Source: Candidatus Nomurabacteria bacterium
GTDB lineage: Bacteria > Patescibacteriota > Minisyncoccia > Phycocordibacterales > UBA9973
NCBI GenBank assembly: GCA_016199805.1
Contig: JACQGC010000005.1
Coordinates: forward strand, 72,019-118,810
Direction: 5' to 3'
Length of the DNA: 46,792 nucleotides
Position numbers and translations under genes: made by a program. Positions 12,060 to 28,148 of the stretch are shown here, one piece after another. The notes below the pieces were generated by a model. That model was given only the letters and a program-made list of their open reading frames with translations. It made no database searches and was not told the DNA's origin. Positions within the stretch are counted from its first letter, which is position 1, and each line of letters opens with the position of its first letter.

Positions 12060-13233
12060 AGATTGCGAGCCGGCGCAAGAAAGTCACCTTGTGGCCTACA
12101 CCTCGGTGGTTTTGGGTTGGATAGATGAGCCGATATTCGACTTCATGGAAAGAATATTCAAAAACACGGCTGAAAATATTTCCGATAAAACCACTCTTCC
12201 ATTTTTCAATCTGATGGTCTCTTTAGGTTTGGGAAAATTTTCTCTGGAACCCGGCGCCAAAGACACTTGGCGCACAAAATGTTTCTGGGACGAAGCGACG
12301 CGACGAAACATAAAAATGAAAGAATTTCACCTGGGTCCGATTCAAGACGGCTTTGTGGCCAAACATCAAAAAGAAACAATAATTTTCGATGGATTGCCTA
12401 GGCCAGATGCCAAAGACTCTCCCGCGCTCAAGTGGATGGACGATAAAGGCATAATGAAAATAAAGTTTTTAAAAGAAGGTTTGCCGGTAGCAGATGGTGG
12501 CGTAGCCTGGACGACAGCTGGCGCGCTCAAGATTTTTAACCGTCTGCAAAAACCGGTAATAACCAAACCAAACCTGGGTTCCCGTAGCCGACATACGACC
12601 ATACATATAAACACCCCGGAGGAGCTGATTGTCGGATTTAAAAAGGCCAGAAAACTTTCTCCGCTGATTGTCATAGAAGAAGAATTGACCGGGGCTCTTT
12701 TCCGGGGAACATTGGTGGGCGAAAAGTTGGTGGGTGTAGTCAGACGAGACCAGCCGGCTGTTGTCGGGGACGGCAAACATACTCTGCAAGAATTACTGGA
12801 TGAGGAAAACAAACGCGCAGAACGAGGTGGACCTATTTTTCATAAAATACTTATAGACAAAGAAGCAAATGCGGAATTGGACAGGCAAAATGTAAAATTG
12901 AGCGATGTTATAGAAAAAGATAAAGTTGTAACTTTCTCTCAAAAAACCAGTCGAGGTTGCGGTGGCACCACTACCGAAGTCACCGATATTACCCACCCAG
13001 AAAATATGGCAATGCTGGAGCATGTGGCCAAGTTTTTAGACGACTCGCTTATAGGCGTGGATTTTATAATGCAGGACATTACTAAATCCTGGAAAGACCA
13101 GCCCCATTCGGGAATAATAGAATGCAACAGCTTGCCGTTTATAGACCTGCACCACTACCCTCTTTTTGGAAAACCAAACAACGTCGCCGGACACTTGTGG
13201 AATCTGGTAATGCCGGAAAGTAAAATAGATTAA
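12046..13233 (+). CDS. ATP-grasp ligase related to the N-terminal domain of cyanophycin synthetase/GshAB
   Basis: DDK, PVITKP..GS, VVGDGKHTLQEL, GVDFI, IIECNSLP. Confidence 0.8.
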   Translation: MKHCKDCEPAQESHLVAYTSVVLGWIDEPIFDFMERIFKNTAENISDKTTLPFFNLMVSLGLGKFSLEPGAKDTWRTKCFWDEATRRNIKMKEFHLGPIQDGFVAKHQKETIIFDGLPRPDAKDSPALKWMDDKGIMKIKFLKEGLPVADGGVAWTTAGALKIFNRLQKPVITKPNLGSRSRHTTIHINTPEELIVGFKKARKLSPLIVIEEELTGALFRGTLVGEKLVGVVRRDQPAVVGDGKHTLQELLDEENKRAERGGPIFHKILIDKEANAELDRQNVKLSDVIEKDKVVTFSQKTSRGCGGTTTEVTDITHPENMAMLEHVAKFLDDSLIGVDFIMQDITKSWKDQPHSGIIECNSLPFIDLHHYPLFGKPNNVAGHLWNLVMPESKID

Positions 13234-13234
13234 A

Positions 13235-13741
13235 TTATTTTTCACTCAAAACAGTTTCAATGGAAACTTCCGATTTCGGGTCGAAAGAATTCGGGTCCAT
13301 TTTTAGATTAGAAATATATTTTTCTTGGCTGACAAATTCTCCCAGAAATTTCAGGAAATCTTCTTTGGCTTCCCTCTCTCCTTTTTCTTCCATGTGTTCT
13401 AGTGGGTGCGCCTCGGGAGTAAATTCAAAATGTCCGCAGATTTCTCCGTCTTTATATACGCGCAAGTGGTATTGGTCTTGAAAATCTGTAAGCTTCCTCC
13501 AGGAGAGAACCTGGTCTTCATCCACCCAAGCTATAAAATGGTTACCAAAACCCCAATTGGTGTGCAGATGGTCTTTCAATTCTTCCAAGGTGCGCCCCGC
13601 CGACAGCCATCCGACGTGATATTTCTGCCTGCCTTTTTTGTGCCAGATAAGGTGGTGTTTCAAAAGGAACTGCCTGGCCGGCAGAAAAAAACCGTAAACA
13701 AAATCCCACATTTTTTGCTTGGCTTTGTCTTCGGGGGTCAT
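13235..13741 (-). CDS. Hypothetical protein
   Basis: 168-aa ORF preceded by the leaderless promoter pattern TGC-TATATT-N6-ATG; QYHLRVY..GHFEFTPEAHPLEH. Confidence 0.7.
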   Translation of the reverse strand: MTPEDKAKQKMWDFVYGFFLPARQFLLKHHLIWHKKGRQKYHVGWLSAGRTLEELKDHLHTNWGFGNHFIAWVDEDQVLSWRKLTDFQDQYHLRVYKDGEICGHFEFTPEAHPLEHMEEKGEREAKEDFLKFLGEFVSQEKYISNLKMDPNSFDPKSEVSIETVLSEK

Positions 13742-13777
13742 GTGTTTAATATAGCATAAATATTTAAATTAATAAGG

Positions 13778-13865
13778 CGGAAGGTATGGGAGTCGAACCC
13801 ATAGAGGAGTTTTAAAGTCCTCACGGTTTAGCAAACCGCTGCCTTACCATTCAGCGCAACCTTCC
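13778..13865 (-). tRNA. tRNA-Ser(GCT)
   Basis: GGAAGGT/ACCTTCC acceptor, G73, GCGGT-TTGCTAA-ACCGT anticodon arm, long variable arm, GGTTCGACTCC; CCA not encoded. Confidence 0.95.
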
Positions 13866-14874
13866 ATTTTCGTATCTTTTGCAGATGTTTCTCATTGTGA
13901 CTTCCTATCTCCTTTATATACTTATTCACAAAACGTGTATCATCTATCCGCACATCTTTTTGATTCTTGCTTATTCTTACATTAAATCCGGAATTTATCA
14001 AAGTTTTTGCAAATGACGACAAAAGAGGTCTTGAGGCGCTCGTAAAAGCTATTTTTAGATACGAATACTTTTTTCCTCTTACAATATATGAATGAGTGAA
14101 AAAACATCCATTTGTATCTATTAATCCCCTTATGCATTCGCGACTAAATACTTTATTTGTCTTAATCCATTCTGGCATATCAACTTGATGCATAACCTTA
14201 TTACCCATTTCAAAACCAAATTTTTGACAAAAATCAACAAGTAATTTTCTGTTAACAATAATACTTACGGCATTAGCTGATTTATGTTTAAAAATTTTTG
14301 GAGAAACTCCAAATAACTTTTGGATAACACTACTCACATATTTGATATAATTTTTTTCTTCTGAAGAAAGAGCGATACCAACATGGTAGGCAGAGATATT
14401 TCCATCACCAAGCAAAATACCAATAAATTCAGCGAGCAATTTACTTTTTCTTGGAATTTTTATTTTTGCCAAAGTCAGAAAACCCTTGGCCGGTTTTTTA
14501 TATTGCCCTATTTCCTCCCACCATTCTTCCCATTTTTCTTTCCTATATTTTTCATTTCCACCCACACTTCCATATTTAAGAAATTTGTTTTTCCCGCCTA
14601 TTTTTCCGGCTTTTTGAAAATGCGTTCTCCAATCAATGACAGTGTGATTTTTAGGAATTGGTACATTTATCAATTTTGAAATTGTTTGCGCCGAAACTTG
14701 AGAAATTGTAATTTTCTCCCGAGTCCAATCAGTTAGGGTTCTTTGGCTAATATTCAACTTTTTTGCCAATTTAACCCCAGTTAATCCCAATATCTTTTGG
14801 GCTTTTAAAATAAAAGCTCTCTGCGTTCCCTTATTGCGAAATTTTATTCTATATTTTACATACGACTCTGACAT
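13828..14874 (-). CDS. HTH plus two-motif LAGLIDADG endonuclease-like protein overlapping the tRNA-Ser 5' half
   Basis: N-terminal HTH (GVKLAKKLNISQRTLTDW), LAEFIGILLGDG, CIRGLIDTNG. Confidence 0.85.
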   Translation of the reverse strand: MSESYVKYRIKFRNKGTQRAFILKAQKILGLTGVKLAKKLNISQRTLTDWTREKITISQVSAQTISKLINVPIPKNHTVIDWRTHFQKAGKIGGKNKFLKYGSVGGNEKYRKEKWEEWWEEIGQYKKPAKGFLTLAKIKIPRKSKLLAEFIGILLGDGNISAYHVGIALSSEEKNYIKYVSSVIQKLFGVSPKIFKHKSANAVSIIVNRKLLVDFCQKFGFEMGNKVMHQVDMPEWIKTNKVFSRECIRGLIDTNGCFFTHSYIVRGKKYSYLKIAFTSASRPLLSSFAKTLINSGFNVRISKNQKDVRIDDTRFVNKYIKEIGSHNEKHLQKIRKWKVALNGKAAVC

Positions 14875-14922
14875 ACTTCTATCATACCATAAATTAAAAA
14901 AATATTGTATAGTGGTTACGTT

Positions 14923-15009
14923 GGACAGATGACCGAGTGGCTTAAGGTAGCGGTTTACTACACCGCCGTCCCCTTAAAAGGACCGTGGGTTCGAATCCCA
15001 CTCTGTCCG
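14923..15009 (+). tRNA. tRNA-Ser with ACT anticodon
   Basis: GGACAGA/TCTGTCC acceptor, G73, GCGGT-TTACTAC-ACCGC anticodon arm, long variable arm GTCC..GGAC, GTGGG-TTCGAAT-CCCAC. Confidence 0.9.
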
Positions 15010-15174
15010 CTAGTATAAAAATGAGTCCAACTTTTGTTGGACCATTTTTATTTAGAGGAAAGAAAAAAGAGAACTGCTTCTCTTTTGTGAGGGATGAGAA
15101 AGATTTTTCGTTGTTTGATTTTAATCAAATCGAAAAATACCCGCCGCAGTATCGGCGAATCCCACTCTGTCCGC
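14992..15174 (+). repeat. 19-bp direct repeat of the tRNA 3' end (14992-15010 and 15156-15174) flanking a 145-bp multi-hairpin spacer
   Basis: cgaatcccactctgtccgc occurs twice. Confidence 0.9.
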
Positions 15175-15271
15175 AAAAAAAATTTATCTCCATAAACGAA
15201 TTCAGGCCACGGGCGTCTTTTGGACGGCCGTGGCCTGTTTGATGCTCGCGCTGCCAACAGCGCGAGCGATA

Positions 15272-15844
15272 CTACTTTTTTGATTTGGGATTGAAGTACG
15301 CCTCTAGAACTGGCATAACTTCTTTCCACACTTCTTCCCAGCTCCACAGCTGGGGCATCTCTTGTGCAGAGACACACGGGCGGTTGACGATAATCTTGTA
15401 CCCATGCACCTCAACACTCTCCACCCCCACTGTGTGCGAGAGTCTCACATGTAGGTTACCTTTGATGTCCGAGACGTGGTATTTTACATCTATGACAAGA
15501 AAGTCTGGGCAGCCCGCGACCGGACGAAATGTCCGAGTTCCGTCATCCACTTTGGACTGTACGGAAACCACGTACTGCTGAGCTCCGAACGAGCCCGTGC
15601 GCGGTCTGAACTCACTGATGCTTGTACCGACGGACGATGATACAAGCGGAAATGGCTGGACGACTTCGAGGTGTTTTTGGGATTGTTGGTGTTTAAAAAC
15701 ATTTACTCCGAATCGAAGCAAAACCAACACGAGCATCAGAGCCATTGACGCTGAAGCTCCTGCCCAAAGCAGTTCCTTGTTGGTGAAAGGAACCAACCCT
15801 CTTAGCCATCTCCATAAATCCGCCTTCCTTATCTTCAGCGGCAT
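15272..15844 (-). CDS. Hypothetical protein with N-terminal TM segment (GC-rich orphan)
   Basis: AGGAGG SD before ATG 15844 (MPLKIRK); two strong hairpins downstream (about 15204-15268). Confidence 0.65.
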   Translation of the reverse strand: MPLKIRKADLWRWLRGLVPFTNKELLWAGASASMALMLVLVLLRFGVNVFKHQQSQKHLEVVQPFPLVSSSVGTSISEFRPRTGSFGAQQYVVSVQSKVDDGTRTFRPVAGCPDFLVIDVKYHVSDIKGNLHVRLSHTVGVESVEVHGYKIIVNRPCVSAQEMPQLWSWEEVWKEVMPVLEAYFNPKSKK

Positions 15845-15907
15845 TAATATTTTCCTCCTGTTTATGGGAATGCCGCAGAGATGTCTCCGCGGCATTGTGA
15901 GGGTGCG

Positions 15908-15997
15908 CTACATCCCCCGAATGTACGCGATGTACTGCCCGCCCAGGAACACCAGGGCGAAAGACACCGCGCAAAGCGCGATTATCCGTTTGCGCAT
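15908..15997 (-). CDS. Small hydrophobic peptide MRKRIIALCAVSFALVFLGGQYIAYIRGM (29 aa)
   Basis: Manual translation; GGGAG SD, upstream TGT-TATATT, downstream hairpin AATGCCGCGGAGA/TCTCTGCGGCATT. Confidence 0.5.
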   Translation of the reverse strand: MRKRIIALCAVSFALVFLGGQYIAYIRGM

Positions 15998-16074
15998 TTG
16001 TGTGCTCTCCCACTACTAATATAACACATTGTGAGCAATATGTAAAATGTAATTACGTTTTAGTGCCGAGGCTT

Positions 16075-24903: not shown

Positions 24904-24911
24904 ATTTTTTG

Positions 24912-24984
24912 TCCGCCCTCCACGACTCGAACGTGGGACCGATCCGGTATAAGCGGATTGCTCTACCAACTGAGCTAAGGGCGG
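24912..24984 (-). tRNA. tRNA-Ile with TAT (UAU) anticodon
   Basis: CCGCCCT/AGGGCGG acceptor, A73, GCTC D stem, ATCCG-CTTATAC-CGGAT anticodon arm, CCACG-TTCGAGT-CGTGG. Confidence 0.93.
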
Positions 24985-27745: not shown

Positions 27746-28148
27746 TGGTGGAACTGACGGGAATTGAACCCGTGTGCAGAAGGTTTTTGCAAGGACGTCT
27801 ACATACATAGCTCGCTTTTTTTGTTTAAGTTAAAAAATTCAGAAACGAGCCAAATATTTTTTAACCGAGTTCCTTTGTTTTGCTCCTGCGTCAGAACGGT
27901 CGCAGAAACTATCCCGATAATATTACACCCCTACTTATATATCGGAAGTCTATAAGAGAGACGCCAACCCAGGCTTACGCGAAGGCTGGAGCGAAAGCGA
28001 AATCATTCATTCCGAAGAATGGAGAGACAACAGCTTTTGCTTTAGCAGTCAATTTTGCAATTAACATTTGAACAAATTTTTACGAGATTATGTTCATGCT
28101 CGGTATGCATCAATAACAAATGGCCAACTGTCTATGCCTTGCAGTCCC
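27746..28148 (-). ncRNA. ssrA: tmRNA
   Basis: 5' GGGACTG pairs with CAGTTCC-A-CCA (G3:U70), T arm ACGGG-TTCAATT-CCCGT; tag frame 28058-27975 AKLTAKAKAVVSPFFGMNDFAFAPAFA*; immediately downstream of smpB. Confidence 0.93.

Follow-up and report, generated by a model that had tools for sequence, protein, structure and literature searches.

A LAGLIDADG homing endonuclease gene 5' of tRNA-Ser(GCU) in a Candidatus Nomurabacteria bacterium borrows its stop codon from the tRNA, probably after a short deletion

The window, by which we mean the whole stretch of 46,792 nucleotides that was analysed (positions 72,019 to 118,810 of contig JACQGC010000005.1, assembly GCA_016199805.1), comes from a Candidatus Nomurabacteria bacterium, a tiny groundwater bacterium with a 753-kb genome (G000). 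It contains an open reading frame (ORF) for a LAGLIDADG protein, referred to here as the homing endonuclease gene (HEG), which lies between two divergent tRNA-Ser genes, GCT on the minus strand and ACT on the plus strand, and whose 3' end enters tRNA-Ser(GCT) (Table 1). The initial annotation had described an ORF reading 38 nt into this tRNA, and the coordinates of the ORF and of the ARAGORN and Rfam predictions bear this out. Bases 1-35 of the tRNA encode the terminal residues (W)KVALNGKAAVC of the protein, and the stop codon TAA (13830..13828) is formed by tRNA bases 36-38: U36, which belongs to the anticodon, A37 and A38. At the opposite end, the start context reads TG(14889-14888)-G-TATGAT(14886-14881)-AGAAGT-ATG(14874). 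The tRNA-encoded tail, the TAA in the anticodon loop, the TGG-TATGAT-N6-ATG start pattern, the divergent tRNA-Ser pair and a second LAGLIDADG motif reading IDTNG, with Asn255 at codon 14112..14110, had also been described before, and all were recovered. The HEG is present as a single copy in the genome (tblastn), and the window's tRNA-Ser(GCT), which has a "type B" 5' end beginning with GGAAGG, is the sole GCT tRNA-Ser that ARAGORN found there.

Table 1. Coordinates in the window of the HEG, its coding features and the flanking tRNA genes
Feature	Coordinates	Strand	Details and source
HEG ORF	13828..14874	-	348 aa; ATG at 14874, TAA at 13830..13828
tRNA-Ser(GCT)	13776..13865	-	ARAGORN; Rfam tRNA 47.9 bits at 13778..13865
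ORF/tRNA overlap	13828..13865	-	38 nt; tRNA bases 1-38 in ORF
LAGLIDADG motif 2 IRGLIDTNG, Asn255 (AAT, 14112..14110)	14107..14133	-	alignment
LAGLIDADG motif 1 EFIGILLGDG, Asp157	14401..14430	-	alignment
XRE-type helix-turn-helix (HTH), N-terminal, residues 29-73	14656..14790	-	Pfam HTH_3, E 5.2e-6
TGn-extended -10 box TG-G-TATGAT	14881..14889	-	6 nt 5' of HEG ATG; sequence
tRNA-Ser(ACT), divergent partner	14923..15010	+	ARAGORN; Rfam 52.9 bits

Sorted by phase, the stops within tRNA-Ser(GCT) are TGA at bases 13-15, TAA at bases 20-22 and TAA at bases 36-38. Because the last of these is the first in-frame stop in the window's phase, an ORF that reads into the tRNA in this frame cannot end anywhere but in the anticodon loop, and the phases indicate that the position of the stop is incidental, no more than chance. 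In an Rfam search of positions 13000-16000 (E ≤ 1) for a possible intron, only the two tRNAs and sub-threshold matches lying on them were observed. With its own start and a promoter-like box, the HEG is by these features free-standing and neither intron- nor intein-borne. On the other side of the spacer, a -10-like TATAGT is found 9 nt 5' of the first base of tRNA-Ser(ACT).

The profile of the HTH of the encoded protein also matches the MBF1-like HTH 2MEZ, and Pfam LAGLIDADG_3 was matched over two stretches (E 1.3e-10). An AlphaFold model built on 102 relatives, with a mean predicted local distance difference test score (pLDDT) of 90.2, displays, after an N-terminal HTH bundle (helices 17-69), a pair of long helices rich in Trp and a LAGLIDADG core of two halves. 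Residues 342-348 have a pLDDT below 50, and the end of the tRNA-encoded tail is therefore disordered in the model. The best fold match in Foldseek was the archaeal intron enzyme I-Tsp061I (2DCH; E 5.7e-11, target template modelling score 0.76), followed by VMA-intein endonuclease domains, I-AniI and the I-OnuI group, and all the top matches are LAGLIDADG enzymes. A profile-to-PDB search agrees (2DCH, E 5.8e-8; 7QSU, E 2.1e-10). Pfam, the model and Foldseek all point to a two-motif architecture, in which each motif heads an alpha-beta-beta-alpha-beta-beta-alpha half.

The acidic position of motif 1 is Asp in all 102 aligned full-length relatives, and that of motif 2 is Asp in 101 of the 102, with Asn255 of the window as the lone exception. 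Acidic residues at both motifs are a property of the family (both Asp in 101/102) that the window copy lacks. Since Asp is so widely kept, the alignment indicates that Asn255 is a private change of the window copy and not a family trait. In other LAGLIDADG enzymes, replacement of Asp by Asn at this position abolishes or cripples cleavage, and by analogy the window protein is probably inactive or crippled. It is a LAGLIDADG endonuclease by descent that has probably become defective, and the HEG is probably at an early stage of the decay usual for homing elements.

In total, 130 database relatives of the HEG protein were found. A single-protein scan of genome contigs gave 5 loci, and an alignment-based scan of metagenomes detected 479 relatives, from which the best 80 were taken. 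The set comprised 97 loci, namely 16 from genomes (with the window counted once), 1 remnant and the 80 metagenomic loci. Ten loci were uninformative (8 contigs ending too early and 2 partial matches), leaving 87, in which four locus pairs with identical proteins were each counted separately. In 83 of these 87 loci, a same-strand tRNA begins at most 35 nt after the HEG stop or overlaps the ORF end: 59 have their own stop with the tRNA 0-35 nt further on, and 24 run into the tRNA and stop inside it. Two others have their own stop with the tRNA at +51 or +129, and two have no same-strand tRNA (L015, and L004, where the tRNA is inverted). With 31 tRNA genes predicted by ARAGORN in 753 kb of genome, the adjacency of HEG and tRNA is therefore not due to chance. 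The adjacent tRNA is mostly tRNA-Ser(GCT), and Ser(TGA), Ser(CGA), Ser(GGA), Tyr(GTA) and Gln(CTG) were also observed. Comparison of these loci indicates that the HEG belongs to a large Patescibacteria family of free-standing HEGs located directly 5' of tRNA genes. In the inverted case (L004:1160-1248, a tRNA-Ser(GCT)), the HEG ORF enters the antisense of the tRNA 3' end.

Among the own-stop members, the stop lies in or beside the tRNA's own -10 box. The run-in stops are located in the anticodon loop (13/24), in the D arm (7/24) or 3' of the anticodon (4/24). Nine of the anticodon-loop stops are TAA at bases 36-38 of tRNA-Ser(GCT), including the window and one pseudogene; two are in tRNA-Tyr(GTA), and two are in tRNA-Ser(TGA), where the anticodon itself is the stop. 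The initial annotation turned on how often homologues end inside the downstream tRNA, and this count, 24 run-in loci next to 59 that stop 5' of the tRNA, does not fit a stop designed to lie in the anticodon loop, as relatives stop before the tRNA or inside it at differing positions.

The own-stop relatives nearest to the window end in ..K-W-K-x-x-x-N-M-L-K/E-stop, and the DNA of this tail holds a TGn-extended -10 box located 8-16 nt 5' of the tRNA, such as TGTTAAAGT in L008. A comparable box, TGCTAGAGT, is found in the empty spacer L115. This HEG-less locus of the same genus has spacer DNA that matches the own-stop tail from the Trp codon onward, and the tail is therefore tRNA promoter-region DNA. 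In L008, the order is HEG, own stop, the box TGTTAAAGT, 8 nt and a tRNA beginning with GGAAGG. The word AAATGGAA occurs twice in this locus, at the Lys-Trp-Lys codons and at the tRNA start, with 36 nt from start to start; the second copy is composed of the last leader bases and the first bases of the GGAAGG tRNA. The window is without the approximately 35 nt that carry the tRNA's TGn-extended -10 box in own-stop relatives. In all seven intact run-in Ser(GCT) loci with the GGAAGG tRNA type (the window, L003, L031, L032, L038, L039 and L055), the junction AAAT/GGAAGG is exact. In L019, a GGAAGG-type tRNA without a HEG has kept its own TGn -10 box.

We propose that, in the lineage of the window, ORF and tRNA were brought together by a deletion of about 35 nt between the two AAATGGAA repeats. 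Such a deletion would produce the AAAT/GGAAGG junction and would take away both the HEG stop codon and the tRNA's own -10 box, after which the ORF would read into the tRNA until the first in-frame stop, U36-A37-A38. The arrangement observed in L008 is likely the precursor form of the window's junction.

The run-in state is shared by many relatives. The same tRNA-encoded tail, to the anticodon-loop stop, was observed in at least 35 of the 120 best database proteins; among these 120, 11 end at other stops inside tRNA-Ser(GCT), 9 end in the 5' end of another tRNA and 20 have the own-stop tail with the promoter box. A one-off loss of the stop by chance in the window is ruled out by this shared tail. 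The condition that the initial annotation had set against itself, homologues that stop before the tRNA and a chance loss here, therefore stands in its first part (59/87 loci) and falls in its second. In a tree of 80 of the 120 proteins, with the tails cut off, the window is placed in a well-supported clade of 38 proteins. Run-in forms account for 32 of the 38, with 24 ending in the anticodon loop, 5 in phase 1 and 3 in the D loop; 2 have their own stop, and 4 were unclassified by tail patterns. Between own stop and run-in, this tree requires at least 7 changes, of which strong branches force 5, and a tree of 81 locus-derived proteins, in which L007 (own stop) is sister to L032 (run-in), requires at least 8. 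Because of these repeated changes, the trees indicate that the junction is labile in detail, in both phase and stop position, and that no particular tail is selected. Direct abutment of ORF and tRNA, with intact ORFs and both Asp residues, is tolerated and perhaps favoured.

A TAnnnT-N6-ATG start context was found in 62 of 84 family loci, 39 of them with TGn, so the leaderless promoter pattern pointed out in the initial annotation is conserved across the family. A further 13 of the 84 loci keep the same DNA with ATA or GTG in place of ATG. In the genome of the window, a -10-like hexamer exactly 6 nt 5' of the first ATG was observed in 105 of 594 long ORFs, compared with about 20 at other spacings, and a Shine-Dalgarno-like word was observed in 50 of the 594. 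Given this genome-wide peak at N6, the leaderless-type start of the HEG appears real but is ordinary for the organism. Gene starts in this genome appear to be mostly of leaderless type, and the gene following tRNA-Ser(GCT), with its ATG at 13741, displays the same -10-N6-ATG pattern.

The box at 14881..14889 is likely the promoter of a leaderless HEG mRNA and probably also the promoter of the downstream tRNA. No terminator-like site was found between the HEG ORF and tRNA-Ser(GCT). Because the tRNA's -10 box in own-stop relatives sits in the approximately 35 nt that are missing from the window, the earlier proposal that mRNA and pre-tRNA form one transcript is likely. As to how much of the tRNA-Ser(GCU) in this organism depends on that transcript, we consider it likely that most of it is made from the HEG promoter. 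The processing and rescue machinery is encoded: RNase P RNA was detected at 110.9 bits, a transfer-messenger RNA (tmRNA) gene with a 27-residue tag peptide was identified by ARAGORN at window positions 27746-28148 (-), and smpB lies directly beside it (G000:C3:100198-100623). The tRNA would then be transcribed mainly from the leaderless-type promoter of the HEG and freed by RNase P, and the cut would turn the HEG mRNA into a non-stop message. Ribosomes would complete the protein only if they got through ahead of cleavage, and tmRNA-SmpB would rescue those that came later. This effect of processing would be a tolerated by-product, perhaps lowering endonuclease output, and not a designed switch.

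The distribution of the HEG is that of a mobile element. Of 24 other genomes of the genus, only G007 and G010 yielded a full-length relative, and the HEG is absent from all 29 partner-tRNA loci read from other genomes of the order. HEG-less divergent ACT/GCT spacers of 62-131 bp were identified, providing the empty sites with adjacent tRNAs that the initial annotation had proposed to look for. Decay was also observed. L018 is an internal-deletion remnant in which codons 1-47 are joined to about the last ten codons, and L020 is a near-complete deletion that consists of the -10 box and 14 nt matching the last bases of the ORF, directly 5' of the tRNA, with the same upstream flank as L018. Internal stops in the HEG were found at four loci (L037, L046, L065 and L072). 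When occupied and empty spacers were compared, no clear junction was seen at the left border of the element. Contigs of four DNA sequencing runs matched the region merely as short pieces on the tRNAs, some of them from other organisms, and showed no junction informative for the locus. The family thus combines site-specific occupancy and empty sites with a patchy distribution, and of the two identities suggested earlier, a tRNA-linked homing element or a domesticated DNA-binding regulator, it is the former that the empty sites, the deletion remnant and the pseudogenes favour. The HEG is a mobile selfish element, which is probably decaying here.

The start of the ORF has a feature of its own. 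The 17 nt that begin 6 nt 5' of the HEG ATG, right after the -10 box, resemble a tRNA-Ser 5' end; the tRNA-like stretch covers window positions 14855-14880 and occupies the same place in L001-L110, for example GGAGATATGGCTGAGTC in L045. With a score matrix derived from 95 tRNA-Ser 5' ends, this position outscored all others (about 2000 per locus) in 26 of 84 loci, and in a few more the best position fell within 3 nt. As the loci are homologous, these 26 represent one conserved resemblance. The stretch is kept even where the ATG reads ATA. No co-variation of the ORF start with the adjacent tRNA was detected (mean score 3.24 with the own tRNA, 3.19 with others and 2.38 with shuffled sequences), and ongoing conversion or pairing between the two was dropped as a candidate for this reason. 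The tRNA-like start may be what remains of a tRNA-Ser gene that was the site of an ancestral insertion, or a target-mimicking operator.

Within one genus (L017-L023, L029 and L115 were compared), two very different tRNA-Ser(GCT) types occur, one starting with GGAAGG and the other with GGAGCC or GGAGAC. Among 60 other genomes, only 5 were seen to hold the window's type, at 91-98% identity, and G010 has a variant of it. These five genomes with the GGAAGG type gave no match to the other GCT type, nor to the window's tRNA-Ser(ACT). The latter, with A at the wobble position, had matches in 167 of the 301 order genomes sampled, a tally that takes in G310, a genome flagged as unpublished on which nothing else here depends. 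Among the 29 loci read from other genomes of the order, ARAGORN called Ser(act) in 26, mostly beside tRNA-Ser(GCT). An exact 19-nt direct repeat of the tRNA-Ser(ACT) 3' end is present at 14992-15010 and 15156-15174, 164 nt apart, with a terminator-like hairpin at 15025-15042 between the copies; the repeat looks like the scar of an element once integrated at the tRNA-Ser(ACT) 3' end. Elsewhere in the window, a tRNA-Ile(TAT) gene was identified at 24911-24984 (-), and a tRNA-Ile(GAT) gene lies elsewhere in the genome.

Taken as a whole, these data make it quite probable that the window holds a selfish HEG of the HTH and two-motif LAGLIDADG type, inserted 5' of tRNA-Ser(GCU) and joined to it by a deletion of about 35 nt. 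Members of the family would occupy the short promoter-proximal spacer that immediately precedes a tRNA gene, and the window copy would sit in the spacer common to tRNA-Ser(GCU) and the divergent tRNA-Ser(ACU). Several points weigh against this reading. The deletion is deduced from comparison with L008 and not with a direct ancestor, and either repeated deletions or recombination between alleles could account for the way in which run-in and own-stop forms alternate on the trees. The persistence of run-in with intact ORFs through most of the clade of 38 could mean that the state is favoured. Inactivation by D255N is argued by analogy with other LAGLIDADG enzymes, and a weak -10-like hexamer inside the ORF could fire as a promoter. 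This hexamer, AAAGAT, is the sole one near the tRNA and lies 8 nt 5' of base 1. It could belong to an independent promoter in the 3' end of the ORF, so that tRNA supply would be free of the HEG promoter and the overlap would have no consequence for the tRNA, an explanation we hold to be possible but doubtful. It would suit such a promoter that relatives have TAAAAT, TAAGAT or AAAAAT at this place, that the tRNA boxes of the group lie 8-16 nt 5' of base 1, and that the run-in locus L045 keeps TGGTATAAT 13 nt 5' of the tRNA, inside the ORF. However, AAAGAT matches TATAAT at only 3 of 6 positions and is a by-product of conserved Lys-Ile-x-Lys codons, whose copy in own-stop relatives lies about 40-50 nt from the tRNA; since these relatives share the Lys-Ile codons, the hexamer neither supports nor excludes an internal promoter. 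A consensus -35/-10 scan gave no site just 5' of the tRNA, with 7 sites in the region compared with 5.7 ± 2.5 in shuffles, and read-through from upstream would still occur. L020 does not decide between the promoters, because it keeps both the HEG box and AAAGAT. Of the tRNA promoter inside the ORF that the initial annotation had named as a possible refutation, there thus remains a weak hexamer without a promoter-like site in the consensus scan. At the opposite pole, the essential tRNA-Ser(GCU) might have no promoter of its own left and be made only as the 3' part of the HEG mRNA; RNase P would then make the insertion harmless, the host could not delete the promoter, and early ribosomes would set a throttle. 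We consider this stronger version unlikely. If it were true, RNase P would do for this HEG what splicing does for intron-borne endonucleases, and each transcript would yield little endonuclease, with the rest passing to tmRNA, a throttle that would help the element to persist.

The remaining explanations concern the purpose and the origin of the arrangement. The initial annotation had favoured a switch, and a selected one would set RNase P cleavage against translation on a single transcript, with a tmRNA-tagged product and an endonuclease that limits itself against tRNA supply. RNase P RNA, tmRNA and SmpB are all encoded, no terminator separates ORF and tRNA, and run-in persists in the clade with intact ORFs and both Asp residues, all of which would suit it. 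Against it stand the own stops kept in most loci, the shifts of phase and stop within the run-in clade with no conserved tail, the disordered tail end in the AlphaFold model, and a simple deletion that suffices to explain the origin, and we regard a selected switch as distinctly improbable. A tentative alternative is that the HEG travels as a cassette with its own GGAAGG tRNA-Ser(GCU), which replaced the resident gene, the tRNA-like ORF start being the 5' leftover of the displaced tRNA. The two very different GCT tRNA types in one genus, the few genomes that carry the window's type and their lack of a match to the other type are compatible with this, as is the tRNA-like stretch being the best matrix match in so many loci; moreover, 4 of the 7 genomes with the window's tRNA type hold a HEG, a remnant or a scar (G000, G010, G071 and G067). 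However, in L019, L021 and L022 the same tRNA type has its own -10 box and no HEG, the near-identical HEGs of L008, L035 and L036 precede different tRNA types, ORF start and adjacent tRNA show no co-variation, and the -10 box abuts the tRNA-like stretch, unlike in real tRNA genes here. The N-terminal HTH, the Asn at the catalytic position and the location over a divergent promoter region could also suggest a domesticated, non-cutting WhiA-like DNA-binding regulator of the two tRNA-Ser genes. This candidate was rejected, because Asn255 is private to the window copy, the HEG is sporadic and empty sites are many: catalytic residues are kept family-wide, full-length copies are missing from 22 of 24 genomes of the genus and from every partner-tRNA locus, the gene was not found in most close relatives, and remnants and pseudogenes exist. 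We assign this role almost no probability.

The usual view of HEGs is that they persist because introns or inteins within conserved genes conceal them. The selfish HEG proposed here would represent a large family in ultra-small bacteria that shelters elsewhere, in the handful of bases separating a tRNA gene from its promoter, where tRNA processing can remove whatever lies 5' of the tRNA. In run-in copies, the tRNA supplies the stop codon of the ORF, and the HEG probably supplies the promoter of the tRNA. If this holds, the locus would be a natural bacterial case of tRNA excision setting the end of an mRNA, with part of the product passing to tmRNA, and the family would be a source of new nucleases with specificity for tRNA-flank sites. 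For annotation, the model accounts for the recurrent ORF-tRNA overlaps and odd C-terminal tails among Patescibacteria proteins.

In the literature searched, no description of tRNA-flank LAGLIDADG genes or of such an ORF-tRNA overlap was found. The enzyme is an ordinary two-motif LAGLIDADG member by descent, and the niche and the ORF-tRNA fusion are new to that literature. It resembles the monomeric two-motif enzymes (I-Tsp061I, 2DCH; I-AniI; I-DmoI; the I-OnuI group; VMA inteins) in its fold, in having both motifs and in the catalytic Asp conserved in the family, and it resembles homing endonucleases in being sporadic and site-specific and in leaving remnants and pseudogenes. Unlike those enzymes, it is free-standing, carries an extra XRE-type HTH and occupies a bacterial tRNA 5' flank, and in the window copy Asn occupies the second catalytic position.

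LAGLIDADG genes, mostly single-domain, are described in 16S and 23S rRNA insertions of candidate phyla radiation (CPR) bacteria (PMC11270868, J Bacteriol 2024). These genes share with the HEG the phylum-level hosts, the superfamily and homing into a conserved RNA gene region, but they lie inside rRNA insertions and not at a tRNA flank; tRNA has no mention in the survey's main text (PMC11270868).

Two further systems offer partial parallels. T4 SegB is a free-standing GIY-YIG phage endonuclease in a tRNA gene cluster, and it is similar to the HEG in intron-less homing beside tRNA genes, for which co-conversion of flanking markers is expected. Unlike SegB, the HEG is a LAGLIDADG gene on a bacterial chromosome, restricted to a single flank of a given tRNA, and its ORF extends into that tRNA. 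In animal mitochondria, tRNAs punctuate the transcripts and genes overlap tRNAs, and excision of the tRNA sets the mRNA 3' end and can leave an incomplete stop. By analogy, excision from a joint transcript would set the 3' end of the HEG mRNA. Unlike in mitochondria, this would take place on a bacterial chromosome, without polyadenylation to complete the stop, and the rescue would fall to tmRNA-SmpB.

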